A stretch of DNA of 64,000 nucleotides from Prorocentrum cordatum (GCA_963575745.1 CAUYUJ010000237.1:1-64000); one strand, 5' to 3'. Shown: positions 3,883 through 50,712, numbered from the stretch's first letter. Notes: generated from the letters alone by a model not told the origin. A program made the numbers and translations.

Positions 3883-3899
3883 CCGAGTGCGATCCACGC

Positions 3900-4620
3900 G
3901 GCGCCTGAGATCCCCGCGGCGCTCGTCGGCAGGGCGCCGCACCAGCAGGGCACGGGGGGGGGCGCGGGCGCGGGGAGGCGCCTGCGAGACGCGAGCGGCG
4001 GGGCGCAGTTTCGGAAGGCCTCGGCCGCGGACGCGCGGGTGGTCGATGCCCGAGGCCCGAGGCCCCGACGGCCAGCGCCGCGGGGCCCTCGGCGGAGGGG
4101 TGGCCGACGCCTCCGCGCTGGGCCGCGACGGCGGCGAACGCTCGCTGGCAGGCGGCCCCGGCAGAGTCGCGGGGGAGGCGTCGGCGCGGGATCGGGCGCG
4201 TCAATTTCGGCGACCAGCGGCGCGCAATTCCAGAGACCCTCTGCCGCAGACGCGCGGGTGGCCGAAGCCAGAGGCGCTGGGGGCCAGCACCGCGGGGCCC
4301 TCGACAGAGGGGGGGCCGATGCCCCCGCGCAGGGCTGCGACGGCGGCGGCGCCGCTCCCGCGCGACGCCCGCGACCCCTGCACTCGCTGGCGGCCAGCCC
4401 TAGCAGAGGCCAGGAGGAGGCGCGGGCACGGGGGCGAATGCTCCAATTTCGGCGACCAGCGGCGCGAAAGTCCAGAGACCCTCGGCCGCAGACGCGCGGG
4501 TGGCCGACGCCCGAGGCGCCGCGGGCCAGCGCCGTAGGGCCCTCGACGGAGGGGCGGCCGACGCCCCCACTCCGGGTTGCGACGGTAGCGCAGCTGCGAC
4601 TACGGCCCATGCGACCCCCG
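3900..4620. repeat. GC-rich tandem repeat, about 3 copies of 220-240 bp, between LINE-A ORF1 and ORF2
   Basis: The motif GCCGC(G/A)GACGCGCGGGTGG recurs near 4025, 4243 and 4484. Confidence 0.75.
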
Positions 4621-7600
4621 TGATCCCTGGCGACCCCGTCGTTGGGAGGCGCGGGAGGCGGCGTCGGCGCGGGAACGACCTCATCGTCTTCAGCGACCCA
4701 AGCCTGGGACGCAGACCCTCTGCGAAGACCGCCCGTTGGAGCGAGAAGGGCCCGAGCTACCTCGGGCCCGACAACCGCGCGTCAGCAAACTCGCGTCCAG
4801 GGGGTCGCGGTGCGCCGCCTGAAAGGAAAGAGGCCCGACGATGCCAATGAGATGATCTCCGAGGTGGGCTGGGCCGCCATGGCGGTCGCGGCAACGGGGG
4901 CAGCGGGGCATGGGGCACGTGGCCATGGAGGAGCAAGGCCCAGTTCCAAGAAGGACCTGGCATGGAGTAGCAGGCACAGTGGGCAGCTGTGTCGACTCGA
5001 CTCCAGGGATTGGAGGTGCTCTTCGTGCCCGCGCACCTGACAGCACGAGTTGGGCTGGCAGGCCCACGCGTTGAGACTCTCAACAGCATGGCGTCTTTTG
5101 TCAAGACCAAGGGTCTTCTGTTCATCCTTATGGATGATAGGAAAATGGGGCAGCCTGAAGTATACAAGATCCAGATCATCACTTTTCTCAGGAGTGTGGC
5201 GCAGCCCAGAGGAGGAACGGCTAGGTGGTCATAGACTCATTGACGATTGCTTTGTCTCTGGGCAGCTAGGTGGATTGGCCCCCCTCAGATGAGAAGTGAA
5301 AAGCCCCTTGGGCGGCCCCGCGCCACGGCGTGCTCGGGGCCCCCCCGAGCAGCGCCAGAGCAGGTCGCGACGCGAGCGCCAGTGCAGCCAGTGCCAGTTT
5401 TAACAGCTTTTGGCCCAGATGAGTCCTGAGACCTCCATTTGGAAGCGATCCAGGAAAGAGTAAATGTCAGCATGCGCGCCCGGAGCTCGCCGACAAGCAG
5501 CTGGGATCGCCAGGTCATGCATGCGTGGAGCATGCCCCGGCAGCTGAAAATTTGCTGCGCAGCAGGCAGGCCGACGACGGGCAGGCAGCAGCAAGCAATG
5601 AGGGCTTTCTCTCGAGTCCAAGCCCACTCCGTTGCAAGCGACCAAGCCGGTAGGGTCGTCGAACGCAGCCGGCGCCCATTCGCAGTTGACGGCCCTACAG
5701 GCGCGACTTCGTATTCCGAGAGGCCCCGTGTCCAAGGGGTGGGGACGGGAGGTCGGTCTTGTGGGCGGTCGAAGCGATGGCGTGCTTTGCTGCAGAGCTG
5801 CTTGGGCGAGCAGCGGATGCAATGGACGGCTCCGGCAACGAGATGTCAAACCAGTTCAGAAATCTTGGCAGCGAGGCGATCGACAGGGAAGTCACAGCAG
5901 CGGGCCGAATGGCCCGCGGGATCGAATCCCTTTTTCGCAGGAGTGCCCCCGGGGATTCAGGAACTGGGCCCAGGTCAGTTTGGAACAAGGGGCTGGCCGT
6001 GCATCGCCACGCAAAACTCTGGGGCACGCCCGAGAATGTCCTCTTCGTGGCCAGGGGCGCCCAAGGCGATCCGACCCAGGATCTCTCGGTCAGGATTCAG
6101 CGGCAAAAGCAAGGGCCGCCCACGGGATCAGGCATGGCGCAGGACATCCGACGCGCGGCGAGAAAGCATAGCGCCCCTCTAGACCCCATCGAGAGGCAGG
6201 AAGTCTTAGATGCCCTCGAAATTTGCGAAACCGCTCTTAGGCATGGGGGCTGACCGAAGCAACCCGAGCTGGCGGGGCCAGCCCCCGCTAGGTGGCACCC
6301 CCCGCCTCGCCTACCTCCTCCACTCTTTAGAGCTAGAGCTGGCGTGGCCAGCCCAGACAGCGGTCAACGTAGTTCAGCCCATGTATAAGTCTGAGGAAGA
6401 TGACGGACCAATCGCTCTCACCCACGCGCCGCGCGGAGTCTGGCCCCGGATCCGGAGATGGCAGGTCGCCGCGTGGTCGGCCCCGCGCGTTCGCATTCGG
6501 GATGAGGCGGCGGTTGGGCCCAGTTGTTTGCGCGCGGCGTTGTTCCGACAGGTGAAGTTGGAATTGCTCCTCCCCCAGGGTTCCCCTGGTGCGAGGCGCT
6601 TTAGGATATGGTAAGTTGCATGGCGCGCTTCAGCCACGGCAGCTGTGGATAGCAGGTGGGCAAGTTGGCTGCCCTCACCAGCCTCGTCCACGGGCTGGGC
6701 CTCCACTCCGATCCTCGCCTCTGCGAGGGAGATGGGGCGGTGGCCGTGCCAGTCCAGGCCCCCAGGGAATCCTGGCAGGTCGCAGCCACAGCTGCAGCGT
6801 AGCCTTTCTTGCTATGGCAAGCAGGGAGCAATGTCTCCGCATTTCAGCCGAGACAACGCTAGTGCCCCGCCCACCGCACATCGCCAGTGCTGCTCATTCT
6901 ACGCTGCAAGAGTTAGATATCTGTCATTCTGAAGTGCAGCCAGATAGTCCAGGACATAGGCATCGATGGCACGCCGCATCGCAGCGTCACGGCGCGCGCC
7001 AAAGAGAGACGGCAGGCCGGCACAGACAGGGGCAATCTGATCAAGCTAGTGGCCAAGTCGGCGCGCAATGGAACTAGATTTGCCAGGGCAGGGTACGTCC
7101 CGCAGGCAGCTTGGGGCCAGGAGACCCATTCGATCGCGCCGCCAGTGCTGCTTGGCACGCGCGCACAGATCTCGGGGATGATTGGCCGAGAGGAGGGGGG
7201 CTGCGCGACGGCCGCGACCCGCGCGACACCCCCATCGACCCACCGAGATCCTATGGTTTTTGGCGGACTCCGATTGTTTAAGAAATGGGTAGCCATTCTG
7301 CCTATCATCGCCCTGGACAGAAGACAGGCACTAGAATATTGCATGGCGGAAGGCTCGGGCGGATCTCGAGCCAGCCAGCGACGCGCTCAGCAAAGTCAAG
7401 GGCGCGCTCGCGGCACCGATTGCCGCTTTGCAGGATTTAAGTTTCAAGGCAGACGCGCCGCAGAGCTGGGGCGACCAGGACGGGGGGGGGGGCATCAATC
7501 GGAGGCGGACGATCCCGAGCGCATTGGTTGAGTTTGAATACCATGGCGCATTGGATCAGCAAGCGTGGTCGACGGCATCCAAGCACTTCCAGGGTAAGGG

Positions 7601-11889: not shown

Positions 11890-12612
11890 GTTCTGTTTCC
11901 TTTCACGCTTTCGCACTCGCCGTGGTCCACTCGCCGTTGTCCCGAACCCCTTGGAGAGCCAAGTGCCGATGATCCCCTGAACACTTTCTTCCTCAAGACT
12001 GTGAACTCATAATGGCCTCAAAGCCCGGAGCATGCACACATAAGAATGTGGTTGGCTTGAGTGCCTGTGATCCGAAGCGACATTGGTGTATGTCCACCTT
12101 CTTGACGCACGCGCGAGAGAGGAGTCGAGTGATCTCAGGGAGCTGCCAAATGGAGGGAGCCTGCGCCCTGTGACCTTTGGCAAGGTGTTCAAGCATCATG
12201 AGCACTCCGGTTAGCACGCATCCATAGAGGAACACAGTGGCCGTTCTAAGCAAAGCGTTGCCCACTCGAACTTGGCTCCGTCTTCGGCGGTGAACACATT
12301 GAGGCCCCTGGGTTGGAGGAGGCTGCGGAGGGGGCGCGATTTTGCTGTAACTCCTGGGCAGGCTTCGAATCGGGCAGCAGACCAGGTTTCACAGGGTGGG
12401 CCCGCCATTATTCCACAAATGCGGCCGTGCTTGAATAACCCTCACCACCACGACACAGCTTCAGGCGCGGCCCAATCCCCCAAGGTGGCATCGTTAGTCA
12501 GGTCCAAGGAAAGCACCACCACTGCAAATCCCCTGTCCCCGCATTCCTGGTCGAGGCAGTCCTGGAGATTCAAGGATCTGCGATGTCCCGAAAACAGATG
12601 CAGAGAGTACCT
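11890..12612 (-). pseudogene. C5-cytosine DNA methyltransferase domain of LINE-B (disrupted)
   Basis: Motif I LHLFSG (12603-12586), an in-frame TGA at 12444-12442, motif IV AGPPCETWSAAR (from ~12405), a frameshift, motif VI-like MLEHL, motif VIII-like QCRFG..KPT, and a C-terminal C..DHRH..L.G...GEWTTASAKA. Confidence 0.85.
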
Positions 12613-13330
12613 GATCTTTTCCACTGTGGGAGGGCTCGTGTCGCCCACGAATTGTGCTGGTCGTTCTCCAGCCGTCCTCTCGGCTGGGCCACTTTGTCGG
12701 TGGTGACTGCGGCAGGGACACCGTCCGGCGGCGGTGGCGCACATGGCCCACGACGAAAGCTTGGCCCACGCAGCGCTCCTCGCCCCGAAGCGTCAACAGC
12801 AGGCAGTCTCTCAGCCCGACGGAGAATCTGCCGGCTGGTGTGCGCGACCTCCCCCTGTTCCTGGGTGGGAACCCCAGGGCGGCCCAGAAGACCTCCCCAG
12901 TCGGGATGCTGAGAGCCTCTGCACCGTCCTATGGGTGAGGTCGCTCCAGGTGGCGCAGCTCCAGAGCGAGCCCCGAGATGGAGTAGGCCTCGGCATCCCT
13001 GAACGTATGTTCTCTGCTCTCGCGCCGCATGTCGAAGTCATTCGAACGCCCTTGCGCGTGTGCTGGGGGTGGAGGGGTGGGGCAAGATCCCTGCCAAAAT
13101 AACATCATGCGAGCCACTCGCGCGCGTCGGCCACGCGCGCATGTCGAACTCCTTCCAAAACGTTCATCACCGACGCGAGGACACCGTCTTCGTCATCGGC
13201 GTGATCAGCATCGGCACCGTCATTGGCCTTGCCGTCGTCATCGTCATCATCGTCACCATCATCGCTACGATCATCACCGTGTCTACCGTTGTCGACGTCG
13301 CCATGATACCGCGCCCGCCCAAGTCCTGAG

Positions 13331-14460
13331 CTAGTGACTTTTGCCTAGGGCCATCCTGATGGATGTAATCTCCCCAGACACCGTGGCAATTTTGTGAGCG
13401 ACCTCACCCGTCATGTCACCCCTGTCGCTGATGAAGGTGCCAAAGGGTTTCATGATCCGCTTCACCGCGATAGGGGTCGCGAGCTCCGGCACGTTATCAA
13501 AACGATTGCATTTTCCCCAGGCCCAGAGCTGAATGGCCTTGGAACCTACCCCCATTGGAGCAAACATCAACTTGTTCTTGTCAAGATTCATGGTGATCCT
13601 CGTCTTCTTTATCGCCTGCGCGGCGACGGCAGTAGCTCTGCTGGCTGCTGCAGGGGAGTGCTGGGCTTGTGCCGCAGCACCCACCAGGGTGAGGTCCATC
13701 GACGAAGGAAGTGTCGGTTTGGGCTGCTTGCTGGGCCGTTCTTTGGAATCTCGGCTCCACCTCGGGCGCTCACGCAATCCATTCCTGCATCATGGCTTGC
13801 TGAATGTCTCGGATGGCTGGCGCAAGCGCGACGTCGAGCATGTCAGTGGCGGGCAGGGCTCCAGGCTTGCAGCAAAGGAGGAGGAGTCTGAACAAAAACC
13901 CAAAGCGCTTCGAAATCTCTCTAAACGCCGCGGGTCTGCGTCTCGGCGATGAGCCTCTTGACGTGCTCATCACTCACCTCCTTGTCGAGAATGACCAGGG
14001 GACCTAACTTCTCAAAGTAGACTGCAAACTTGAGGGCAGTAGAGCAGCAAACTTGGGGGGACCAGCAAACTTGAGGGCAGTAGAGTGGGGCCTGCCAGCT
14101 AGCAGCTCCATGACAACTCCCTGCTTCAACGGCAGCGCAATGACCTGCTTCTCAACTGGACTGTAACAAGCCGCGGCCAGATCCACTAACAGAACAAAAG
14201 CCGAGCGTCCCACGGCTTTGACCGCAGCTAGTGTGGAGAGAGCGAGGTGGGGGGAGAAGTCCGTGCTCATGCGCGGTCGACCTCCACATCTCAGGCGATC
14301 GCAAACATGGATCAAGGGGGCGTAGATTAGCGACGGGTCCCGTTTCCATAGGAAATTTCGGATTTCCGCCGCCGAACGAGGCGGCACCGGCCGCATTTTG
14401 TGGAGGGCACCTCCCCCGATCCATGGATTTGGCGGCCGCGCGCCAAATCCATGGATCGCT
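13331..14460 (-). pseudogene. LINE-B reverse transcriptase remnant
   Basis: AFVLLVDLAAACYS resembles the RT D-x-x-x-A-F-Y motif; NLDKNK..and KPFGTFISDRGDM resemble domain 7/thumb. No intact YxDD was recognised. Confidence 0.6.
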
Positions 14461-15449
14461 CATCTATTTTTGCGCGCCCCCGAACATCGGGTGCTCTTCA
14501 GCACCCTGGTGAGCAGGCAGGCGAGCTGGCGTCTCACATTGGCATGGTGTAGTCCGGGGAGAACATTACTGAGCATGATGCTGCGCTGGGAGGTCGCGAG
14601 CCTGTTGTGGTTTTCTTTGTCCTATGGCAACCACCTCGGGACGCGCGAAACAAAGGGGCTCCCTTTCCATGAACGCAGCCGTACAGAAGAGCGGATGGAT
14701 GAGCCTGGCCGTGGCAACATGGGGCCGCTGAGAGAACCTCACGCGTTAACAGACCCGGTCCACTAGCCTTGCCACTGCTAGCCGGGATGATGTCGACCTT
14801 GACTTGCGGCCTGGAAGCGTTGCATTCAAGCGTCCTGGGAACCTCCCGGGCAAGAAGGGCTCCAGTGTTGTAAAGCTTGACCATATCATCTCTTGAGGCA
14901 TGCGTGGCTTTTTCGATCTCTCCGAACTGCCTCTTGGAGTAGATCTTATCCGGTGAATTCAATGCGCCTCCGTTGGGGGCAAGTCTCATGGGAAAAACAG
15001 CTTCTGTGTTGTTCCACATCCCTCCTAGGTGAAAAGGCGCCCTGACATTGGCCTACTGCTGCTTAGGCCGCTTGGCATCGATGTAAAGTCCTACTACATC
15101 CCTGTGATACAAGCAACTGCGGATAGTCAGTGGAGAGCATGTTTCTGCAAATGGGTTCGGACATCTTAAGGAACGTGGCACACTCTAGCACACATGCAGC
15201 TGGTTGTGTGCTGTGCCACTTGAAATCGTACGCGGCCCTGCGCAATCTAGTCCAAACTGCGCAACGTTCGCTCTTGGACACACTGTGAGCTTCTGCCGCT
15301 TGTGACACGCCGACGTTGAGGACTGAGCAAGGAGTCTGAGCAAAGTTGCACGCTCGCTTCCTCCGACTGCTCTGGGAGCGGTTCATTCTCTAGGCTCATT
15401 CTGACATTGTCTCTAAGTTTTTGCGTTGCGAATTTCTGTGGATCGAGAC

Positions 15450-16270
15450 GAAGGCTTTCCTTCCTGGGGGGAAACATGCTGCCACCCCAGCTTCACAACC
15501 AACGCATATTGGTCGGTATGCCCCTCGCCAGTGTCACGATCGTAGAGAAACCTCATGGTGCTAACGTGCTGGGCAAGATCCAGAGAGGTAAGAATGTAGC
15601 CAATCCTTGCTGGTTGATCTCTGGCCTGAAACGTGCGCCCACAGGCATCATCGCGAAACGTGTTGATGGCAACAAGCTTTTGGGACATCAGAAAAGCGTC
15701 ATACCACCGCTGCCGTCCTCCTCGTCAATCCCTCAGTCCCCCGCGCATTCCGTCTGCAGAGAGCCCACGGCAGCATTGGCGTCTATCATGACACTTTGCA
15801 CCTTGCACCGTGAAGCAGTCGTCTCGAGGTCGTTCCGAAACGCTTGGCGTCTTCTAACGACTGTTCATCGGTGCGGCGCATGGGGAACCAGAAGGTTGCC
15901 ATACATCCGGGGGCCGCGATCCGAATCGCAAGGTGCCTGGGGGAGTCATCCAACACCAGGAACTGGGCCGGATGGAAACACAACGGCATTTGTTTGGTTT
16001 TTTTTCTCCGTTGGGAAAGTGAAGGTAAACCCAGAGCTCCGTGCCCTGGTTGTTCGCCTGGTGTCCCGAGGCAATGCGGTAGTGGGCCCCGCTGTTGGAA
16101 CTTTTGACCGATCTGTTGTTGTGACCCTCTTTGGACCCCAACAAGGTGCAACCCTTCTTTGTGAAGTTGGTGCTTCATCATGTCTACTCTGAGCCATATT
16201 TCTGCGGCCTTTCCCCAACGCTTGTTTTCTCTGAGCGCCTGAATATAGACCGTGCAACAATACACATCAA
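15450..16270 (-). pseudogene. LINE-B apurinic-like endonuclease remnant
   Basis: TVYIQAL..LHLVGVQ (xNV..QE equivalent), GTELWV, GRTF...RIGYIL, HTDQYALV (SDH equivalent), spread over several frames. Confidence 0.65.
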
Positions 16271-16489
16271 TACGCATGGTCTTGCAGTCGCTTTGCGTCT
16301 GGTGCTCAAGTTCTGGATGCAGGTCCCTAGCAGCGCTGACATTAGGAAGCTCCGCATCCATTTTCCCCCTCCTCTCCTGGGAAGCCAGCTTGGATAAACA
16401 TGCTCTTCAGGACCAGCCTGCAGGAGCCACTCCCACTGTTTCGACAACGCAAGCTGCACAGCCCCTACCAGGGGACCAGGGAGCTGTGG

Positions 16490-16960
16490 GGGTTGCTCGA
16501 GCTTTCGAAGTGCGGTCATCTTGGCAACGTTATCCGCAAGCGCATTCCACGGGTGCCCCAGGTGAGAGTGCTGGTGGGTGATGGTGACCTGCGCTCTGCC
16601 GGACGTTGGCATGAACACAATTTGCAGGAGCCTGGCAATGTCACGGTCGCAGGCCTGGCCAGTGGCCGCTTTCAAGGCTAGCAGCGAATCTGCGACAATA
16701 TGAGCTCTGCATCGAGGGGAGTATGCGAGCAGTCGGAGGCATGCCCAGATATGTGTGAGGCACTCCACAGCGGTGCTGGTTGCTTCCTCCTGCGTGAGGT
16801 CCATGGAATCGGTGCTTCCCATCACCCCCTCAAGGTTCCCGTGAAAGCAAAAGTGTCAGTCCTCCTGGCAACAGATGCAACACCCCATGCACCCTTTCCC
16901 ACTCCTCTCGTATATAAGCTGCCATCCGTGTAGACGTGGACGGAGTCAGGGGCGCCGTCG
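16490..16960 (-). pseudogene. LINE-B RNase H domain remnant, upstream of the endonuclease
   Basis: HVYTDGS..GAWGV, STAVEC, HIVADSLLA and HSHLGHPWNALADNVAK match the D-E-D-H-D RNase HI pattern. Confidence 0.8.
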
Positions 16961-19900
16961 GTAGGCGGACAGATCTGGAGGGCAAGTTTGGCATGGGTTT
17001 GAAACAACCCCGTGTCTTAATGTTGTTTTGTAGAGGGCGCCCGCAGAGGCGGGAAACGACCATGTAGGCCCTGCACAATGTGCAGCAATGGGGAAGAGCA
17101 GGGGAAGAGCATGAGTCAATTCCATGGTGCACCGGGGATGGGTTTGCGAGATCGGGTCCTTCTGGGTGCTGATCCTCTGGGCCACGAGATACCCTTACGC
17201 CCAGCCCTCAGGCGCCTTGAGGAGAGAAGGGAGGTGCAGAAGGATGCAGATCACTTGGGATAGTCTCCGATGACACGCCAGGGCCAACCGCTGCCGCCCC
17301 CTGTGAGCCTGTACTGGACCCTGATGCATGGAGGTCCTGGGACGTTGCATCAGGAAGGCTACTCACAGAGTCCTGAATTGTGTCAAGGGCCCTCGAGGGG
17401 TCCACACTTGGGCTGGTGGTCCCTGGCCAGCTTGCTTCCAGATCCGCGGGTGGCGTTAAACCCCTCGGCTCTACAGGATTCGTGTTGCAAATGCTGCACC
17501 AACTGCCGGCTGCCGAAAAGTAGGAAGATCTAAGGGGAGGCAGGCCTAAGTGCTGACACATCATCTTTGTCCTGGTCCTGCACATCTCTTGCGACTGCCT
17601 ACGCGTCTGGCGCACGTGAATCGGATCCTGCTGCTGGGCTAGGCCCCAAGGGTCCACGGTAATAGAGACCATGAGATCCCAGAACGGGTCGGCGCCCCCA
17701 GAATCTCCGTTCTTGGGAGTGCCAGTTGGATCAGGCATCCTGCAGGAAACTGGTGGGTGTCTTGTGAGGGGACTGTAGCCACTTGAGTCTCGGCTGTGCT
17801 GGTCGCCGCCGCAGTCGCGTTCAGCAGCATGCGGCCGAGTCTCTTTGTTCTTCAGCTCTGGCTGCCGTAGTCCTGGTGGGTGGGTAGCGGATTGCCCCGG
17901 ATCAGCCTGCGGCCCTTGGCCAAGTTTCCGCTGTTTGAGAGCCGACCTGGGGGGGGGAGGTGACGCGGGAGGGACTTAGAGCGGGATCCTGGATGCAAGA
18001 ATTTAATTAGGAAAACAAGTAGTAGTCTGTACTTGACCGCATCTGACCCTCGAGTCCGCTGTCTCACTCACGATGTGTCAGCTGTGCATCTGGCGGGTGT
18101 CCTTGCAGTTGCTGTGCTCGTCGAGTTTGCAGCCGCCAAGCCCGTCGTTGGAGTCCTGGCTGCGGCTGTCGTGCTCGATCTGCTTCCAGAATTCGTCGTC
18201 GCAGCTGTTGATGGCCATGGTCGAAGGGCTTGCGCTGCAGCTGTCATGATGATTTCCCTTGCCGCAACTCAAACGGCGTCTTGATGTTGGTCTAGGCATT
18301 CGGAGTGGCAGTCCCCATCTGGCGCGTAATGTTGTTGGGGATAGTGTCCTCATGCTCCGACCGCTCGTCCGCCATGTAGTGATCATTCTCTGGCCCTGCT
18401 TCACAAGGCTGCATGTCACGACGCCTCTTGTTGCTTCTTGATTCCGTTGTTCAGGACTGTTCGCATAGATCTCGAGCAAGCTGTATTTTCGACTCGTCTC
18501 CTGGTACGTTGTGAGCGAAGACGGTGGACAAAGATAGCTATGCCACGACATGTCTGATACAAGAATGCATTCGTTCATCGTAGTCCGATTCATCCACTCC
18601 ATGAGCAGTCTACAATGAGGCTAGTCCTTTGATTTGACCTCGGAGCTGTAAGATGTACTAGTCCGCAGCTTCCTGCTTGTAGCTTTCCTTCTTTTTGTTG
18701 GGAATGTTCGTCTGCATGAGCTGCGTCATGTCATCAAGGGTACCATCTCGTTGTAAACGCATCTGCCCCTGTTGTGCCGCCACCTATTCTGTCGTTCTTG
18801 GTGTAGGACGCCCCAGTACCTGATGTATATAACGCTTGAGGTCATCAAACTGCCATCAATTTTCTTCGACGTGTCCCTGAAGTGGCCCCCATGTTCGCTG
18901 TCGATGTTGTCGATGCCGTTGCCCTTGCCGCCACGCTCTGGGACATATGTTGTCGGCCATCGTGTTGGCATCTATTTCCAGATCCTTCGCTTACTGTCGC
19001 TGTCTGTCTCCTTGCAGTACCTGCTGCACGAGAGACATGCAGTAGTCCATCTTGTCTTGGAAGTAGGAAATTCCGATGTCTGGTACATGATGTATCTACA
19101 TGCCCGCCCACGCTTCCATGGCCTCGGAGTGGTTAGCATAGCGCTATTTCGTTTGTGTGGGCGGTCTCGTAGGCGATGGAATTGCCATGATAGTCTGTGG
19201 CTGCACACACCTGCATGAGTCTTAGGTCCTCTTGTCTTTGGTCATCTTCGTCTTGCCGCTCGTTTTCTTGTTTGTGTTGTTGCCGTTGCTGATCACCTGG
19301 GTCTCGTTGTTCGTTCCGGTCTGGTTCTCGCCACAGGAGTTGGAGCCTTGGTTCAGGATGGTGTTGTTGCTGAAGCTGGAACTGCACAAGGTCGGTCGAA
19401 GCCGTGTTCAGTTTGGTGGCAGCATGTTTAGTCTGCGGACGAGGCCCGCGTCCTTACGCGAAAGCCTCTCCAGACCTGCGAGCCACTGCCCCTGACCCAG
19501 GCCGGAGGAAAAAGCGGGGGTAAAAACAACGGGAAGCTCGAAGTGCTCTTTTGAAATCGCTGCTCCAGCTGCCGTGGGTGGCATAGTCGGTGGCGGCCAC
19601 TGTTGTACTTGTTGCTGCGCACTGCAGCCCGGCAAGGTGCCGCGAACATGATGTGCTGTCACTTCCACCAATGGCGAAGGTCACCTGTCCCTGTGGTTGG
19701 AGGTGAGGAGGTTGCGCCGCTGGCATTGCTGTGTAGCCCAACTTGCCCTGGCCCTTGGCTGTGCACATGGCCTGCATTATGTTCTGCTGCTCCTGTAACC
19801 ATTCAGGGTCCACCGCTCGAAAGATTCCTTGGCACCCATGCCCTGCATCTGGTGCTGCTGCGGGTGCTGCGGCTGCTGGGTAGGCATCGCGCCAGGCGTA

Positions 19901-23883: not shown

Positions 23884-23904
23884 CCGTAGCCATTTTGGCT
23901 CAAG
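23884..23904 (+). other. Exact 21-nt DinoSL core at the 5' end of LINE-C
   Basis: CCGTAGCCATTTTGGCTCAAG matches the dinoflagellate SL exactly apart from the first, variable base. Confidence 0.92.
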
Positions 23905-31879: not shown

Positions 31880-32015
31880 GACGATGGTGATGATGATGAC
31901 GATGATGATGATGGTGGTGATGATGATGTTGATGATGATCATTATCATGATGCTGATGATGCTGATGATATTGGCGATGATGGTGATGACGATGAGTGTT
32001 TAAAAATGGTGATGC

Positions 32016-32053
<38 letters not shown>

Positions 32054-32249
32054 CTGATGCTGCTGATGATGATGGTGATGGCGATGGTGACGGTGATGGT
32101 GGTGATAGTGATGATGGTATTAGTGGTGATGGTGACGACGATGGTGATGACGATGGTAACAATGAGGATGTTGATGCTGATAGTTATGATGTTGATGATG
32201 ATGCTGATGATGCCAGTGATGAATTTGATGGTGATGGTGATGGTGATGG

Positions 32250-32284
<35 letters not shown>

Positions 32285-32288
32285 GTGG

Positions 32289-32350
<62 letters not shown>

Positions 32351-32790
32351 TTGCTGATGTCGATCACGATGATGATGACGATGACAATGCGGATGGCAAT
32401 CATGATGATGATAATGATGATGACGAGGATGAGGATTATTAGGCGGAAGAGGAGGAGGAGAAGGAGGAGGAGGAGGAGGAGGAGGGGGAGGAGGAGGAGG
32501 AACAGGAGGAGGAGGAGGAACAGGAGGAGGAGGAGCAGGTGGTTGAAGAGGCTGAGGATAGTGATGATGAGGTTGGTGATGGTCATGGTGATGGCGATGG
32601 CGATGGTGATTCTCATGGTGATGGTAATGGTGATGGTGATGGTGATGGTGATGGTGATGGCGATGATGATGGCGATGGTAGTGGTGGTGGTGATGATGAA
32701 GATGATGATAACGATGATAATGATGGTGATGATGACGAGGAGGAGGAGGAGGAGGAGGAGGAGGAGGAGGAGGAGGAGGAGGAGAAGGAG
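31880..32790. repeat. (GAT)n/(GGT)n/(GGA)n microsatellite block
   Basis: Direct reading. Confidence 0.92.
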
Positions 32791-33519
32791 CAGGAGGTGC
32801 ATCGTGCGGCGACGATCCGCGAGACGTCGGGCAGCCCAGTGGGGAGCAGCGACGCGACACTAACGACCAGCTTGGCCGGAGGCGGCGCGAGCGGGGCCTG
32901 AGGCCTGCATCACAGTGGAGCTTCCCCGCTCTGGTCGCACTCTCCCACCAATGCACCAATACCTTACGGCGCCAGTTGCCAAATGGAGGGGGCCGAGAAC
33001 CTCTTCACGGCCCCTCCGCCACCGAAGACGGCCGCAGGGAGGGGTCCAGACGTGCCTCCACATGCTTACACCCTCACACCCATCAACCAACCAACCAATT
33101 TCCCATATTCCTTCCCTCTCTCCTTTCCCCTCCCTCTCTTTCCCCTCCCGCTCTTATTTTCCCTCCGACTCTTGGTCCCTTGCCATCTCTCCGACTCCGG
33201 CTCCGACTCCGACTCCGTATGGGACACGCGCCCTCGTCCAGCAAGAGCAGTTAGCGGGCCCCGGCCCACCCGCGCTGTCCGCAAAGGGCTTGCTGGCCGA
33301 CCGGCCGGCGGACTCGGAGCGTTCCTGTTCCTGTTCCCCTCCTTCCCCTGCCCTCGAAGCGTGAGTTGGTACGTCTCTGCCTCGCCAGGTTCCTTCCGCG
33401 GCGCGCGGGCGCTCCTCTCCTGCGCGGCCGTGCAAGACCGCGAAATCTATTCCACCTTCCAAGCGATTGCGCGGCATTCACACATTCGTCCTGCACTGTT
33501 CCCCTCCTAGGCCATAGGT

Positions 33520-33716
33520 ATGAGGAGGAGGAGGATGTTGATGACGATCATGCTGATGATGATGATGATGATAATGATGACGATGATGATCATGATGATG
33601 ATGATGAGGAGGAGGATGATGATGCTGATGCTGATTATGATGGTAATAATGATGATGATGCTGCTGATGCTGCTGCTGCTGCTGCTGCTGGTGATGATGA
33701 TTATGATGATGATGAC

Positions 33717-33803
<87 letters not shown>
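33520..33803. repeat. (GAT)n microsatellite, left flank of the DIRS-like element
   Basis: Direct reading; the same repeat resumes at 40263. Confidence 0.92.
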
Positions 33804-33807
<4 letters not shown>

Positions 33808-34466
33808 AGCTCTTGAGCAGTAATCGCAGAGCGTTGGAGGGCCGCGCGGTGCTTGTATCTGCTACCGCTTCGGCCCAAGCCTTTTTCGGAGGAGGTCGCG
33901 TGCTGCCAGGCCCGCCCGCGACCTGGATGCGCCAGGCGGCCCGCGGCGCGGTGTTCCTGGCGTTCCACGTTGGCACGGCGTGGCTCGGGCAGTGGTCGGC
34001 CAGCCGCGGCCCCGCCAGCCCTTCGGCCGCGCGGCCCGTGGCCGCCGCGCCGCCAGCCGTGGCGCCAGCGCCCGCTCCGCCATCGCGGAGCTGCCCGGCG
34101 GCCGCGCCGCCGACCTCCGCGCTGGCTGGCGAGTTGTGCGCGGAGTTGGAGAGGTGCCTGTCCTGGGTGGCTGCGGCACCGCTCGTGGAGTGCCCAGACC
34201 CTTGCCCGGCGTGCCCCGAGCTGGCCAAGGCGGAGTTCTCCTGGGGCTTCGAGGTTTTTCCGGGCCTGGGGACCTTCTTGTTGTGGGACCAGGCTGTGGG
34301 CCGCCGTGCGCGGCCAGGCGGACCGCTGCTGCGGCCTGAAGCGCGAGGGCGTCCTCGCGGTGGAGGTTCGGTTCGAGCCCACCCCGCCTGGCGGTGCTCC
34401 TGATCGCACGGTGCCCGGAGGCCGCGGCAAGCTCGTCGGCGACTGGACACCGCCTACGATCAAGGC

Positions 34467-35870
34467 ATGAACATTGGCGATGAGTTGTACGTCGAGTATG
34501 GTATGCCAGGGGCGCCTCTCTTACATGCCCGTGTCGTGGTCGCCGTCTCTGGGATTGAGAGGGTCCACGCGGCGGTAGTCTCGCAGGACCACGACCACTT
34601 CGTCGAGTTGTTCAGCGAGGACAACGACGACGTGCGGCACTGGTACCGCGTGGGGCCTGGGAGTGTGCTCGTCCGCGAGGATGGGGACATCACGCCAGCC
34701 GCCGGCGGAGCAGGGTTCAGGGTGTACGATTTCGCCGTGCCCCTCACGCCTGCGGAGCTACAGGCCTTCGCGCATCAGGCCGGGGTGTTCCTTGCTGGCC
34801 ATGATGCTGCTCTCGCTGTCGCTGCGGCGCGTCCTGCAGCTGGTGGTGGCGGAGCGGTGGTCGCCGTTGGCGGCGCTGGGGCGGCTGGAGCAGGCGCGGG
34901 GGGTGCGACAGCGCCCGCGGGGGGCGGCGGCGGGCTTGCCGTGGCAGGAGGACCAGCAGGCGGCCTCGCCGCGCTGCTCGAAGGAGGCGGAGGTGCAGCT
35001 GCCGGCCCTGGGGCAGCAGGAGGAGGTGGTGTCGGAGCTTTTGGCGCAGGAGCCGCCCCCGCCGCCCTGGGCGCGCCCGCTGGCGCCGCGCCGCGGCCCC
35101 AGCTGGAGGCAGGCTGGTTGCCGCGCCCCCGGCCGCAGCGGGAGGCGCCGCCGGGGCTGGCGCCCCCGCCCCCGCAGCCGCCGCCGCGGACGGTGCCGCT
35201 GGGCTCGCTGCGGCGCTGGCTGGAGCAGGTGCTGGGCCGCTGGCCGTCGCAGCCGACGGAGCAAGTGATGGTGCCGCTGGCTCGGGTGACTGCCGTGCGC
35301 TCTCGGCGCAGTACGACATCAACGGAAAGCGGCATCGGGCTTTCGCTTCGGGGGTCGCATTGCTTCGGGCCGTCGGCTGGAACGACTGGGTGGTGCCAGG
35401 ACCGAGGACAGCTCACTGGGTGGCGAACTTCATGCTGGAGAATGGAGGGGGCGCGCTCGGGCACCGCGTCCAGTGGAGGTCAGTTATTCGCCTGGGGCTG
35501 GATGACATAATCGTTTCGGCCCATCACGAGTGCTCGAAGATCTTCGACACGGACGGCGCTGTGCTACGACCAAATGGACCTCACGAGCCTTGCCAGCCTG
35601 GAGTTGGTCTCAAGACAACTTCAACTTTGTGAAGAAAGGGCACAGAGATCGCGTCCCGGGGACGCGCAAGGACAACAACGAGCACCAGGACGAGGAGTAC
35701 TACTTCACAGGGATGGCGACGACGAGAGGGCTCATGGCGGCCCCGGCCCTCTCAACCTGGATCAGCGAGCAGATCTCGAGGGGGAACGCCGTCGCCAAGG
35801 AGAGACGCAAAGCACGGGATGAGAGACAGCTTGCCAAGCCCAAGGTGGCCAAGGGGCCGAATCGGGGCGG
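34467..35870 (+). pseudogene. Gag-like ORF of the DIRS-like element (frameshifted)
   Basis: MNIGDELYVEYG.., a Gly/Ala linker, VPGPRTAHW, YDQMDLTSLASLELVSRQLQ, APALSTWI...KERRKARDER; position upstream of RT. Confidence 0.6.
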
Positions 35871-35963
35871 AGGGCAGCTGACCTCCACAACTACTCCACC
35901 GATCAGGGCTGTCTGCTGCTTCCTGGCCCCGGGCGCGCAGGCTTCCACATCTTCGGCCGCGAG

Positions 35964-38080
35964 GTGATGGTGCGCCAGCGCGACATCTTCCCCTTGCCTC
36001 TTCTCCCTGTCCCTTCTCAGACTGGTGCTGGCCGCCGTGCCGTCGCCCGTCGCGCTCGCTGCCGTCGCCATGCTCTCGACTGGGCCAACGACGGCATCCA
36101 ATCCCTTAACTCACTTGCTGGACGCGATTTGGCTGGGGATGGTGCCGCGAGCGCTGCGCAGCAGATGCGCCTCGAGCACCTGGAGCGCAGCTACTGCTCG
36201 GTTGGCCCCTGTCCTGCTGATGCACGTCGCCGCGGGGGCCTTCGCGAGCTCTGCGGAAGCGCCGCCATGTACGGCGAGTGCGCTACAACCGTCGTGGCCT
36301 ACAACATGGACGCTGCGTCCTGGCCGGACGCGGGAGCGAAGCCCGTCTCCTTGGGCGAGGCGCCGCCAGCCGAGCACCCTACCTGGTCGGGGGATCTGAC
36401 GGCCAATATGCGAGGACCTCCAGCTGCAGCGGCTGGCCTGCGGTCTGAGCTCGGACTTCCACGTCCTCATCTTGACCCTGCACTTCGGGATCACCGAGTG
36501 CATGGAGATTTCGTGACTGGACTGGTGAGTCGCGGCATGGCTCGCCCTGTGCCTGCCGTGGAGCTTGACGATAGCAATGCAACGATGGGTTTGTTCTTCG
36601 TCGAGAAAAAGAACCAGATGCAGAGGATCGCCTTTGACGCCAGGTTGGCGAACTGCGATTTCTTGCCGCCGCCGTCGACGCGCTTGCCCTCGGCCGCCGC
36701 CTTCGCGAAGCTGGAGACGCAGGAGTGCGACGTCGTCTGGTTCAGTAGCGGTGGCATCAGCAACGCCTTCTACGCCATCGAGGTGCCAGCAGAGTTGGGG
36801 CCCTGCATTAGGCTACCTGCGCTGCGCGGCGGCGCGGTGGGCTTGCAGGGTCGCAGCGCTTCGACGCTCTTGGTGCCGGTGCTGGCGGCGTTGCCGATGG
36901 GCTGGAGCGGGGCGCTGCACCTCTGCCAGCCGGTGACGGAGGAGGGGCTAGCGCGGGGCGGCCAGCGCGCCGAGGTCCTCGTGGAGGATCGAGAGGCCTC
37001 TCGCCCGCCGGGCCTGGGGCGCCCGCTGGGCGCGGCGCCGCGTGCGTCGACAACGTCATGGTCATGGGCTCGCCGAAGCAGGACGTCGGCACTGCGGGGC
37101 TTGCTGTAGCGGAGGCGCTCTCCAGCCAGGGCTTCGCGATCCACGAGGAGATGGGGCCGTGTGCCAGACGGACTTCGCGGGCCTCTCGTTCGACGGGCGC
37201 GGCCATGCGGCGCGGGCATCCACCGAGCGCGTTTGGAGGCTGCGTCTGGCTATTTAGGAGCTCTTGGGCCGTCGTGCCTGCTCAAGGCACGCGCTCGAGA
37301 TCGTGGCGGGCCATGCGACCTGGATCATGATGGTTCAGCGGTCTTCCCTGTCGGTGATCAGCTCCGCGCGCGCCTTTGATCGAGTCCAAGGGCATTGAGG
37401 AGGGCGATTTGTGGCAGGCCGCGAGGGGGGAGCTCTGGCACGTCAGGAACTTGCTGCCGCTGATGGCGGCTCACGCGGACGCCAGCTGGCACAGCCAGGT
37501 CACGACCAGCGACGCCTCGCACTGGGGCTGCGGAGCCTGCGAGCGCGAGGAAGCCGTGGAGGAGATCGCGCGCTGGGGGCGGACGGCTGAGCATTGGCGG
37601 TGCCGCCAGGGCGCCACGGCCGCTCGAGCCCGCGCCTTCGGGGGCGAGGATGCCCCTGCGATGCTGGGGCAGCTGCCGATGGCAGACGACCTGCCGGACA
37701 GCTTACGCCAGGCCGACGAGCATGCGAGGGCCTTCGACATGGTCGACGCGAGCTTCACTGTCCCAGAGGCATGACATGTCGTCGAGTCGTTCCCTTGGCG
37801 GGGCCCAGCGAACATACTGCGGCTGGAGGGGCTCATTCTTTCGAACTCGCTTCGGCATCCCCTTCGAGATCGGGAATCTTTCGGACGTCGAGTTGTGCTC
37901 TTGGTCGACAACCTGGGGCTGGCCCTCGCCGCCGGGAAGGGCCGATCGTCGGCCTTCCAGCTTCGAGACATCCTTCGTGAGATCAGCGCGCTCACCTTGG
38001 CGCGCCGCCTCCATGCGCGTGTCCGCTGGGCCCCGTCGGAGAGGAAAACGGCAGATAACCCGCCCCGAGGCTCGTATGAC
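35964..38080 (+). pseudogene. RT-RNase H of the DIRS-like element
   Basis: GLFFVEKK..QRIAFDAR.AN, ISNAFY, LPMGWS, ACVDN (decayed YVDN), TSDASHWGCG, HILRLE, LVDNLG...KGRSS, RWAPSE..AD.PPR. Confidence 0.85.
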
Positions 38081-38329
38081 CTCAAGCCGCAGCTGGAGGG
38101 GGAGGCCGCCGAGGCGGGGCCTGCTGCTGCTGGCGCTGGGCCTGGGGCGCTGGCAGCCGTGCCAGAGTTCCCGAGCTTCGGCGCAAGCAAGGAGCGGGCG
38201 GTCCCGCGCTCGCGAGAGGACGGAGCTGGCAGCCCCGCAAGGCGACTGGATGAAGATCATTGGCATCACGTCGGCTGCTGCGGCGACCGCAAGGAGGACC
38301 TGGCGCCGCGCGCCATCGCCCGAGTCGGC

Positions 38330-39201
38330 GCCCCTTCCGGGCTTGTGCCCGCCGACCTTCCTGGAGTCGAGGTCCGTGGCCAAGGCGACCTTCTCGGACT
38401 ACCAGCGGAGAGCCCAAGCCTTCCTGGGTTGGGCGCTGCAGGCGGGCTAGCTGGACCACAGTCGGGGACCTGAGGGCGACCGGGGCGCTGGCTGGCTGGA
38501 CCAAGGTGGTGCCGCGAGCAACGCGGATGCCAGTGCCGTGGCTTCTTGCAGCGGCGCTGGCTGGGCATCTGCTGTCCAGGGGCTTGCTGGAACACGCCGT
38601 GGCGCTGCTGCTGGCCTTCAATGCCTACCTCCGCCCAGGCGAGATGGATGCGCTGACGCCCATGCAGCTGGTCGCGCCGGTGGCGGGCGCTGGGTTCGGA
38701 CAGCAGCAGTGGGCATTGCTGCTGGGTCCGAGCGAGCTGGGGGCGCCGACAAGGGTAGGCGCCTTCGACGAGAGCATCGTGCTGGACGGGGTCGGGCACC
38801 TGTGCGAGTGCCTCGCGGTGCTCAAGCGGCGCGGCCAGCGCATGACGGACAGGCTCTGGAGCTTCGCCCGCAACGACCTGTCCGTGGAGATGCAGGTGTC
38901 CTCGGAGGCGCTGGGGCTGGGCCAGATGGGGCCGACCGCCCACAGGTTCCGGCGCGGCGGCGCGGCGCGCGACCTGCTGACCAGGGCGCGCTCGGCGCTG
39001 GAGGTCAAGTCGAGGGGGCGCTGGCCCTCCGACGCGATGCTGAAACGGCGCGGCAAGGAGGCGAGGGCCCTGGAGGAGCTGCGCAAGGCGCCGGCCCAGA
39101 CGCTCGAGTTCGGGCGGCGCGTCGCCGCCTGGCTGGGGCCCATCTTCCTGGAGCGGGAAGGCCTGCCGCCGCTGCCAGCGCTGCCAGTGGGGCGTCGCTG
39201 A
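38330..39201 (+). pseudogene. Tyrosine recombinase of the DIRS-like element
   Basis: FNAYLRPGE (catalytic R), HRFRRGGA (HxxR region), RGRWPSD.MLKRRGK (the catalytic Tyr position is not Tyr). Confidence 0.85.
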
Positions 39202-40002
39202 GCGATGGCGAGGTGAAAGTGAGGGTGCGTCGAGTCTTGAGAAAGGCGTTGGCCTCGGCCCAGGCCTCAAGGAAGCATGTTTTTCTGGAGTTGTATTCAG
39301 GCCAGGGGGGCATGTCAAAAGCGATGCGAAACCTCGGTTTTGGGGCGGTGCCCGTAGATAGTTTAAAGCTCCCTTGGTTTGATCTGGAGAGGCCGGGCAT
39401 CCAGGGGATCGTTAAGGGGGTGGATCACGGGGGGCGTCGTCGTCGGTCTCTGGATTGGCACGCCGTGTTGTTCGTGGTCTCAGGCTCGGCATGGGCCCCC
39501 GAATAGTAGGTGGTGCCATCTCAGAAGCCATTCTCACTTTTGGGGACTGCTCAATCTTAACCCCCGTGCCCGCCTTGCCTGCGAGAAGGGCAACTCTCAA
39601 TTTAAATGATGTATTTCCCTGATCCGTGCGTGCCGTAACAATCACGTGCCTGTGGCGCTGGAGAATCCTAGTAGCAGCTGGATGTGGCAGACGTCTCAAC
39701 TCGCCCGCCTCTCGGGGCGGCCCGATAGCCATCAGTGCGTCGCGCATTTTTGTGCCTTCGGAGCCCGCTGGCGAAAGCGCACTCGGGTCCAGGTCTGGAA
39801 TTCCAGTTTTCGGGTAAACCTCCCCAGGCCGTGCCGTGGGCGTTCTGGCCAGTGCAGTTTTTCGGGTAAACGCCACATGGTTCTCCCAGGCCGTGATTCA
39901 GGCTCGGGCAAATTGTGGACCAGTGTCGGTGAGACCCACCCTGTTCGTTTTTGTAACTTGTTTGCCCGAGCATTGGAGCAAACGATCCAGTCGCTGAAAT
40001 GA
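39200..40002 (+). pseudogene. C5-cytosine DNA methyltransferase domain of the DIRS-like element (one frameshift, one stop)
   Basis: Motif I FLELYSGQGG (39282-), motif IV GTPCCSWSQAR, motif VI LENPSSS, motif VIII-like FCAFGARWRKRT, C-terminal C...H..L.G...WT...HP..FC. Confidence 0.88.
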
Positions 40003-40262
40003 AGCCGACCCTGACAGATTGTTAGTTGCGGCTAATGCCAGAATCCCATTCGGGGTGGTTTGGGGTTTCTCTCTTCCTCTCTCGTTCGGTGTGTTTGTGG
40101 TGTGTGTGTGTGTGTGTCTGTGTGTGTGTGTCTGTGCTGTGTGTGTTGTGCCGTCCGTTCGTGTCCCTCTCCTCCGCCGAGCTTGGAGCGTGGCCCGTCC
40201 TGTCCTGCTCGACCCGCCTGGGCCGAGACACGCAAAATGTCTTTGCCTGGTTGAGCGTCGCA

Positions 40263-40690
40263 ATGATGATGGTGATGATGCTGATGATGGTGCTGGTGAT
40301 GTTGATGCTGATGATGATGATGATGATGCTGATGATGATGGCGATGGTAACGATGATGATGCTGATGATGGTAATGATGATGGTGATGATGCTGATGATG
40401 CTGCTGCTGATGGTGATGATAATGGTGATGGTGATGGTGATGATGATGCTGACGAGGAGGAGGAGCAGTAGGAGGTCGAGGAGTAGGATGAGTAGGATCA
40501 GGAGGAGGATAATCAGGAGGAGGGTCAACAAGTGGAGGAGGAAGAGGAGGACAAGGATCAGGAAGAGGTGGAGGATCAGGAGGAGAGGAGAGGCAGTAAG
40601 ATGAGGAGGAGTAGGAGGAGAGGGCGCAGGAAGAGGAGGAAAGGATGATCGGGATGGAAGAGGAGGCGGGAAAGGAGGAGGAGGAGGAGG
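40263..40690. repeat. (GAT)n then (GGA)n simple repeats
   Basis: Direct reading. Confidence 0.9.
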
Positions 40691-40728
40691 AAAACGAGGG
40701 CCCGCTCCTCTTGGCGCGCCTCTTACAG

Positions 40729-40829
40729 GGGCCTGTGCTGCTCCGGGGTGTTCGGCCCCCAGGGCAACTCGGCCTGCTTCAGTTTCCCAGACTTCACGTT
40801 CCTGCGCTGCTGCGGCGCCACGCTGTCGG
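40729..40829 (+). CDS. Host gene exon: (R)GLCCSGVFGPQGNSACFSFPDFTFLRCCGATLS(G)
   Basis: TTACAG acceptor, G|GC donor, high GC3, Cys-rich motif, phases match both neighbouring exons. Confidence 0.7.
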
Positions 40830-40885
40830 GCGGGGTTGCCGAGGCCTCGTCCTCCTTCTCCTCCACTTCCTCTTCCTCCTTTTCC

Positions 40886-40944
<59 letters not shown>

Positions 40945-41146
40945 GAACATTATTACTTCTAAAGAATAATTATTGTTGGGACCCCTGGTGCACGACCCCC
41001 CTCCAAAACCTAGGCCGCAGCCTCATTTCCTTCATTTTCTAGCGAAAGCTTCAGAAAAGTGGATTAGTACCGGATCCGGTTTTTTGTTGACGCTCGTTTT
41101 CCCTTGCAAAAAACACTATAAAATGAAAATTCTGGTTCTTAGTTGA

Positions 41147-50690: not shown

Positions 50691-50712
50691 TCCGTAGTCA
50701 TCCTGGCTCAAG
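50691..50712 (+). other. Relict DinoSL (19/22)
   Basis: TCCGTAGTCATCCTGGCTCAAG immediately after (CCT)n. Confidence 0.8.

Follow-up and report, generated by a model that had tools for sequence, protein, structure and literature searches.

In a 64,000-nucleotide stretch of DNA (GCA_963575745.1, CAUYUJ010000237.1:1-64000; hereafter "the window"), positions 33805-40262 on the + strand are very probably a decayed, non-autonomous copy of a dinoflagellate DIRS-like (tyrosine-recombinase) retrotransposon family that carries a domain with the fold of C5-cytosine methyltransferases. The copy is 6458 bp long (GC 0.677, observed/expected CpG 0.98), is bounded by microsatellite arrays and is collinear with proteins of ~1400 amino acids (aa) from related elements. 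Along the + strand, and all within these coordinates, lie an open reading frame (ORF) in gag position (ORF1), a reverse transcriptase (RT), an RNase H, a tyrosine recombinase (YR) and the methyltransferase-fold domain (MT), which is the order given in a preliminary description of the region. Elements of this kind have already been reported; the MT of the present version has diverged so far that the standard family model does not detect it. Retrotransposons with a DNA methyltransferase (DNMT) of their own are one of the few cases in which a mobile element may write its host's epigenetic mark on itself, and standard screens would miss the present variant.

Intact relatives consist of ORF1 in gag position plus one long pol ORF, in which RT and RNase H are followed by a bridge of ~375 codons and a C-terminal MT of ~260 aa; a YR gene of the Cre/lambda-integrase type lies wholly within the bridge, in the +1 frame. 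If such an element follows the established behavior of DIRS elements, its RNA would be reverse-transcribed into DNA off the chromosome, and the recombinase would insert the new DNA without a DDE integrase. The pol-borne MT may methylate cytosines of the new cDNA, which would then resemble the heavily CG-methylated host genome, a step suggested by a yeast assay on SymbioDIRS-Dnmt3 (PMC5890265, in the portion available to us). The nested recombinase and the selected open bridge make a clean example of three enzymes and an accessory domain packed into 6 kb.

Element parts and their conservation in relatives

A 193-aa piece of the MT, with its one TGA read as X, was compared exhaustively with representative proteins by phmmer. 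At E ≤ 1e-3 the matches numbered 2406, of which 1054 also passed E ≤ 1e-10; when longer proteins were sought through a word index, in contrast, nothing was returned. Among the 150 phmmer matches listed, 16 are at least 900 aa long, and the MT lies at the C-terminal end in 16/16. Aligned to the window with tblastn, these long relatives show RNase H and MT in the same order in 16/16 cases and RT in 15/16. The source contigs of six relative clusters measure 6.0-6.5 kb, approximately the size of the window element. Metagenome contigs scanned with one relative protein yielded four loci (L001-L004), ~30% identical over the whole length, and the MT accompanies RT and RNase H in 4/4. The preliminary description had singled out co-mobilization of the MT with its neighbors as the point on which its reading would turn. 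The refuting outcome did not occur: in the long relatives and the fetched loci the MT goes together with RT and RNase H. Named relatives of the YR come from Durusdinium trenchii, Symbiodinium sp. CCMP2592 and Prorocentrum cordatum, plus one "Skav" gene model. The MT family as a whole comprises > 2400 clusters at 50% identity and reaches Prorocentrum-like hosts outside Symbiodiniaceae.

Quick trees of RT-RNase H and of MT were built for 14 elements (12 relatives of at least 1300 aa, L001 and L003, but not L002, L004 or the window copy, which is broken). Both trees contain the groups (L001,L003), (P0002,P0003) and (P0009,P0024,P0102), where P numbers denote relative proteins. One deeper clade differs between them, and the MT data do not reject the clade of the RT tree (approximately unbiased test, p-AU 0.269). 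Given as quick trees with long branches, they show no detectable conflict, as distinct from strict co-descent. The MT thus appears, from congruent sequence histories, to have been inherited together with RT and RNase H, and the comparison of DNMT and RT trees that had been proposed as a check gave no significant disagreement.

ORF1 (34464-35881, +) is broken over three frames in the window (frame 0 covers 34464-35290, frame 2 covers 35300-35629 and frame 1 covers 35633-35881) and aligns with the ORF1 of L001-L004 in both alignment and hidden Markov model (HMM) comparisons. No family was recognized by Pfam or by Atlas, whose top match (score 0.86) is a lead only. Because ORF1 is conserved among the window and the four loci but has no recognizable family, the term "gag-like", as used in the preliminary description, refers to position only.

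The RT (35973-37395, +), located by tblastn of relatives and by profile comparison with the PDB, is likewise spread over three frames (35973-36998, 37046-37150 and 37171-37395). RVT_1 matched weakly in 7/21 long relatives, with one (P0114) above the cut-off. A pol profile made from 13 pol sequences and the window pieces had 12 PDB matches at E ≤ 1, of which 11 are RTs; the best match was a group II maturase (7.8e-5), and HIV-1 RT was matched at 0.014. RT motif C (~37040-37060) reads CVDN in the window, YVDN in 11/13 relatives, YVDG in P0084 and YCDN in L001. That Asn is conserved where this motif normally has its second Asp is unusual for a family that clearly multiplied. The RNase H (37409-38083, +; tblastn) contains an in-frame TGA at 37772-37774, and its SDAS, DN and W.PSE.N.AD columns are conserved in the alignment.

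The MT (39213-39999, +) was delimited by phmmer, by alignment and by an HMM built without window rows, which recovers three window pieces at E 1e-46, 4e-23 and 8e-15; it contains a frame change at ~39420 and a TGA at 39607-39609. The frame of the YR stops at 39199-39201, and the MT begins twelve bases further, at 39213, with its N-terminal helix. The four motifs reported earlier as directly following this stop are all present: motif I as FLELYSGQGG (FLELYSG in frame 0, ~39270-39300), motif IV as GTPC (39457), motif VI as ENP (39661) and a VIII-like FGARWRKRT (~39745). The Cys/His segment is present too. In an alignment of 31 stand-alone relatives (A1), the motif-I Gly, Pro-Cys, Gly-Asn, Glu-Asn-Pro, C.FG..WRKRT, the Cys/Cys/His pattern and T..A..YP are nearly invariant, including columns P89, C90, E155, N156 and P157. 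The position of the target-recognition domain (TRD), between motifs VIII and IX, is taken by only ~45 residues with conserved C185, C211, C218 and H225, which possibly bind zinc.

An AlphaFold2 model of the relative P0012, computed with A1 (pLDDT 94.8, pTM 0.91), folds in the Rossmann manner, and motif I (F.G.G) and the acidic motifs II/III are in place. Foldseek against the PDB listed only C5 methyltransferases (MET1, DNMT1, DNMT3A/B, M.HaeIII, DNMT2, ZMET2, DIM2 and M.HhaI; best E 2e-4), with values that are moderate and that do not separate the DNMT families from one another. At the sequence level, the A1 profile matched DNMT2 (E 0.006) and M.HaeIII (E 0.31) in the PDB, phmmer of the window MT piece against the PDB found nothing, and NCBIfam on A1 gave nothing relevant. 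The domain is predicted by this model to have the C5-cytosine-methyltransferase fold, with its catalytic motifs conserved. It is present in 10/92 proteins of the YR set, and a 599-aa gene model, "Skav211267", carries a YR and an MT of the present family (E 8e-67 with the MT HMM).

A recombinase gene nested in the pol bridge

The YR gene occupies 38217-39201 (+) and was found by HMM and alignment in the +1 frame within the pol bridge; in the window it starts out in frame 0, which encodes the N-terminal part (38217-38441), and continues in frame 1 (38452-39198). The bridge itself (38451-39212, +), defined by translation and by the alignment of 12 relatives, is an open pol frame that overlaps the YR gene and is not conserved as protein. 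Frame 0 of the window is open over 38451-39506 and the YR lies in frame 1, which is the same frame relation as in the relatives.

When the window YR was compared by BLASTP with the central part of P0002 and of P0014, no similarity emerged, and the middle of the long relatives (~residues 750-1125) is poorly conserved among the 12 aligned; it was the lack of YR similarity in this part of pol that led to the nested-ORF reading. In L001, pol is an ORF of 1410 codons (2905-7134), and a second ORF of 498 codons, at 4883-6376, overlaps it in the +1 frame; L002 and L003 are arranged likewise. The nested ORFs of these three loci are 31-33% identical to the YR ORF of the window, which is itself 63% identical to P0174. 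Across an alignment of 37 YR sequences (A4), the AYLRPGE, SKVG, LRH, RGRW and RRYE columns are invariant or nearly so, and the YR columns R, K, R-H, W and Y are conserved. Since YR profiles found nothing among PDB sequences, a fold search was needed to settle the identity of the gene, and the fold predicted for the relative P0176 matches Cre and lambda integrase.

We then asked how many stops the pol frame would contain by chance, using 2000 synonymous shuffles per locus. In L001, the pol frame has 0 stops across the YR against a shuffle mean of 20.9; the corresponding values are 0 and 21.8 in L002 and 1 and 17.4 in L003, and the shuffles with as few stops as observed, or fewer, numbered 0/2000 at each of the three loci. 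The third frame contains 30, 24 and 30 stops, respectively. The test is not significant in the GC-rich window copy, in which 0 stops were observed, the shuffle mean is 1.66, 291/2000 shuffles are at or below the observed count, and the third frame has 6 stops. The YR thus has a gene of its own, which sits in the +1 frame of the pol bridge, and selection keeps the pol frame stop-free across it without conserving the protein encoded there. As the pol frame is held open across the YR, the MT would therefore be made as a fusion with RT-RNase H.

Long ORF overlap is a known feature of DIRS elements. The present arrangement is the same in that one frame remains stop-free across another gene without protein conservation; here, the open frame is that of pol, which crosses the YR gene and joins the MT to RT-RNase H.

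Two further observations concern this junction. L003 is also decaying, with one stop within the bridge and with a motif IV of the MT that reads GTPY at ~6510-6520 (pol residue ~1215), so that the catalytic Cys is lost. The gene models P0179, P0021, P0233 and P0204 read from the YR straight into the MT; such YR-MT "fusions" may be frame-shifted copies or gene models with invented introns, or else true fusions in some lineages.

Known elements and alternative readings

Several results weigh against the assignment to a DIRS-like family with a C5-MT-fold domain. The HMM searches recommended in the preliminary description were borne out only for RVT_1, and weakly: PF00589 stayed below threshold in 4/21 relatives, no window piece had a Pfam match even at E ≤ 10 (9, then 5 pieces), and the 22-bit cut-off of PF00145 was never reached in 61 tests (0/21 at E ≤ 0.01, 3/33 at E ≤ 1 and 1/7 at E ≤ 10; best E 0.045 in the 33-set and 0.0088 in the 7-set; highest score 15.9 bits, for P0263). 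The YR profiles A3 and A4 matched no PDB sequence. Motif C of the family RT is YVDN, not YxDD. The usual TRD is missing from the MT, and DNA methylation is therefore not assured. Both folds were predicted for relatives (P0012 for the MT, P0176 for the YR) and not for the broken window proteins. Terminal repeats of the DIRS type (inverted with an internal complementary region, or split direct) were not found in the window. A comparison of the outermost 400 bp of the window element, L003 and L004 with shuffled sequence gave no terminal direct or inverted repeats beyond the shuffled level; the ends used were those suggested by the array edges, and the repeats could in fact be the flanking arrays. 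The CpG observed/expected ratio of the element (0.98) is not depleted and gives no sign of past methylation-driven decay.

Against these points stand the features of the DIRS order that the family does show (RT and RNase H in a pol ORF, a YR instead of a DDE integrase or endonuclease, and overlapping ORFs), the collinearity of the relatives and the predicted folds of their YR and MT. The claim of a YR retrotransposon with its own C5-MT-like domain is upheld, with the amendment that the motifs and fold are of the C5 type and the domain is not a DNMT that Pfam recognizes. This property, the death of the window copy and the nesting of the YR as an overlapping gene had escaped the preliminary description.

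The closest known kind of element is SymbioDIRS-Dnmt3 (de Mendoza et al. 2018, PMC5890265). As described in the portion of that article available to us, its DNMT lies in pol, its YR in a separate ORF and its repeats follow an A-coding-B-A-B layout; SymbioLINE-Dnmt, from the same study, carries its DNMT in ORF1. The DNMTs of both were found with PF00145, and expression of the DIRS domain in yeast led to de novo CG methylation (same portion of PMC5890265). A search of the full-text literature on dinoflagellate DIRS with a methyltransferase, SymbioDIRS and SymbioLINE found no other description.

Could the present MT simply be the SymbioDIRS-Dnmt3 methyltransferase, with nothing to distinguish it from what de Mendoza et al. 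described? We regard this as doubtful. The two share a dinoflagellate host, a divergent RT barely seen by Pfam, a single pol ORF that encodes RT, RNase H and a C5-MTase-type domain, a YR in a separate ORF, and many copies that are mostly silent or decayed; the host group, DNMT-in-pol layout and separate YR ORF all match the available part of PMC5890265. The present MT type also adjoins a YR in the Skav211267 model and in Prorocentrum cordatum proteins, and DNMT3A/B are among the tied best fold matches. However, the published DNMTs were found with PF00145 (as far as the available part of PMC5890265 states), whereas the present family fell below the threshold in 61/61 tests, and the Skav211267 model has no PF00145 match even at E ≤ 10; a recent Dnmt3 offshoot should score strongly with this model. 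The MT here is ~260 aa with a Cys/His segment at the TRD position, and the A-coding-B-A-B repeats were not detected in our element. The YR is nested inside the pol bridge here, an arrangement that the published elements may share. Membership of the Dnmt3 clade belongs to the published elements, with which the present family was compared by description.

Other known elements are more distant. Classical DIRS1-like and PAT-like elements carry a DAM-like (N6-adenine) methyltransferase domain, according to the available part of a recent report (10.64898/2026.05.21.726589; Goodwin & Poulter as cited there). They resemble the present family in the gag-position ORF, RT-RNase H, an MT after RNase H, the YR and long ORF overlaps, and differ from it in that the MT here has Pro-Cys and Glu-Asn-Pro and fold matches that are all C5 enzymes, and in that inverted repeats with an internal complementary region and split direct repeats were not found here. 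A DAM-type MT was considered and rejected: motif IV reads GTPC, not DPPY, MethyltransfD12 was matched only at E ≥ 0.11 in 3/33, and 50/50 listed fold matches are C5 enzymes, although the absence of Dam from fold-match lists is no proof in itself. KnitGypsy-Dnmt3 of Klebsormidium (PMC5890265, available part) is also a retrotransposon pol with a C5 DNMT, but it belongs to the Gypsy elements, encodes a DDE integrase and resides in a charophyte, and its DNMT is visible to PF00145. The summary of the literature in the preliminary description, with DAM-like domains in classical DIRS and DNMT-bearing DIRS elements and LINEs (long interspersed nuclear elements) in Symbiodiniaceae, agrees with the available portions of both sources.

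By sequence, a second copy of the MT family lies at 11900-12710 on the − strand. This diverged and broken copy was found with tblastn and with the window-free HMM (E 9.9e-11 and 4.8e-8), and its motifs read LHLFSG, GPPCETWS, GN, CRFGS..KPT and C..H.HL.L.G..WTT, with ENP lost (EHL). Upstream of it on the same strand, three stretches, all broken, were noted by eye only: an RNase H-like one at ~16480-17100 (VYTDGS ... HLGHPWNALAD), an AP-endonuclease-like one at ~15480-16330 (MIDANA ... RIGYILTS ... HTDQYAL) and an RT-like one at ~13400-15000 (FVLLVDLAAA ... SFVDG). For this LINE-like context, Pfam gave 0 matches on 51 X-read segments and phmmer against the PDB gave none that was relevant; comparison of the window with itself revealed no second copy of the unit, and no DIRS-type RT, RNase H or YR was detected nearby. 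SymbioLINE-Dnmt is a possible comparison, given the dinoflagellate host and the "orphan" DNMT type, but the second MT lies downstream of the endonuclease- and RT-like stretches, if these belong to it, and not upstream in ORF1.

From such a pair the preliminary description had concluded that two retroelement classes within 30 kb carry related DNMTs and that the module shuttles between them. The relatedness of the two MT copies stands; the membership of the second in a LINE is unconfirmed, and the reading, right about the element, overreaches on shuttling. Movement of the module between a LINE and a DIRS-like lineage seems to us rather unlikely. It draws on a second MT-family copy 21 kb away on the other strand, downstream, by eye, of endonuclease-like (~16330-15480) and RT-like (~15000-13400) stretches on the same strand. 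However, no search confirms these stretches, no second copy delimits the unit, neither a YR nor a DIRS-type RT was found near the second MT, and within the DIRS lineage the histories of MT and RT-RNase H agree.

A further question is whether the MT-fold domain acts on DNA at all, or instead methylates RNA, as DNMT2 does, or serves as a non-catalytic nucleic-acid-binding module. The ~45 residues with Cys/Cys/Cys/His in place of a recognizable TRD would fit such a role, as would the position of DNMT2 among the best sequence and fold matches; moreover, yeast expressing the SymbioLINE DNMT reportedly gained no DNA methylation (PMC5890265, available part). On the other hand, Pro-Cys, Glu-Asn-Pro and the S-adenosylmethionine-binding Gly are nearly invariant in the 31 relatives, which argues for catalysis, and fusion to RT-RNase H puts the domain beside nascent cDNA. 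We consider a function other than DNA cytosine methylation unlikely. Finally, that the region is a mosaic of unrelated fragments brought together by nested insertions, as its many frame changes and missing terminal repeats might suggest, is highly improbable and already contradicted, as order and spacing agree throughout with the single-ORF relatives (the RNase H-to-MT gap is 1130 bp, against ~375 codons in P0002) and the same layout recurs in L001-L004.

Returning to the family as a DIRS-like group with a C5-MT-fold domain, we put forward a broader proposal, tentatively and with the balance somewhat against it. Dinoflagellate DIRS-like elements as a group, including those counted as "DNMT-less" by PF00145, may carry a cryptic, TRD-less C5-MT-fold domain with a Cys3-His segment, fused through the selected bridge; cDNA self-methylation would in that case be an ancestral trait and occur much more widely than reported, and a LINE-like element would have acquired the module too. 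If the MT is active, published counts of DNMT-bearing dinoflagellate elements would be too low, because, according to the available part of PMC5890265, these counts used PF00145, and the trait would extend beyond Symbiodiniaceae.

Decay, boundaries and host

The pol path of the window copy changes frame at least five times (at 37000-37046, 37130-37170, 37377-37409, between 38083 and 38451, and at ~39420) and is interrupted by TGA stops at 37772 and 39607. With one frame change in the YR (~38447), the total over the element is at least six frame changes and two stops. In RT motif A, the window has GG and the relatives GD, so that the Asp is lost; in the YR, the window reads FRRGG and KRRGKE where P0174 reads LRHGG and RRYGKE, so that the box-II His has become Arg and the nucleophile Tyr is lost; and the C-terminal T..A..YP of the MT reads T..G..HP. 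Some of the frame changes sit in G runs and could be assembly errors, but the substitutions and stops are not explicable in this way. To judge by these lesions, the window copy is a dead relic, with no function of its own.

The ends of the element were placed at the edges of a (GAT)n array at 33534-33804 on the left and an (ATG)n array, equivalent to (GAT)n, at 40263-40452 on the right, both delimited by Tandem Repeats Finder (TRF) and from the sequence. The 3' untranslated tail (40000-40262, +) includes (GT)n at 40089-40150 (sequence and TRF). The two arrays are in phase once the element is taken out, and the copy is inserted inside a (GAT)n array; the left array could be the left half of this target or a repeat borne by the element. 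In such microsatellite sequence on both sides, a target-site duplication is not discernible.

Each of the three copies with both flanks visible lies between same-orientation arrays of one microsatellite, namely (GAT)n in the window, (AT)n in L003 (1148-1239 and 7214-7350) and (ACTATATAT)n in L004 (1-119 and 6292-6591). L002 has no flanking array; in L001, whose right flank is truncated, (TAGA)n occupies 1-246, and L004 has an internal (GAT)n at 261-330. These flanks may point to microsatellites as preferred targets, may be repeats that the element brings along or may be coincidental (n = 3). Long compound trinucleotide arrays of (GAT)n, (AGG)n, (TGGTGA)n, (GAG)n and (TTG)n also flank the window element, at 31883-32797 and 40263-40945, and produce very long spurious ORFs in all frames.

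The CpG observed/expected ratio of 0.98 for the window element compares with 0.89 for the window as a whole and 0.58-0.63 for L001-L004 (GC 0.44-0.50), which may point to unequal methylation-driven CpG loss among the hosts.

The host is a dinoflagellate. The window contains an exact match at 23884-23904 (+), with 0 expected by chance, to the 21-nt spliced-leader motif of dinoflagellates. Two further copies of this motif, each with three mismatches, lie at 2659-2679 and 50692-50712; these genomic spliced-leader copies look like relics of retroposed, trans-spliced mRNAs.

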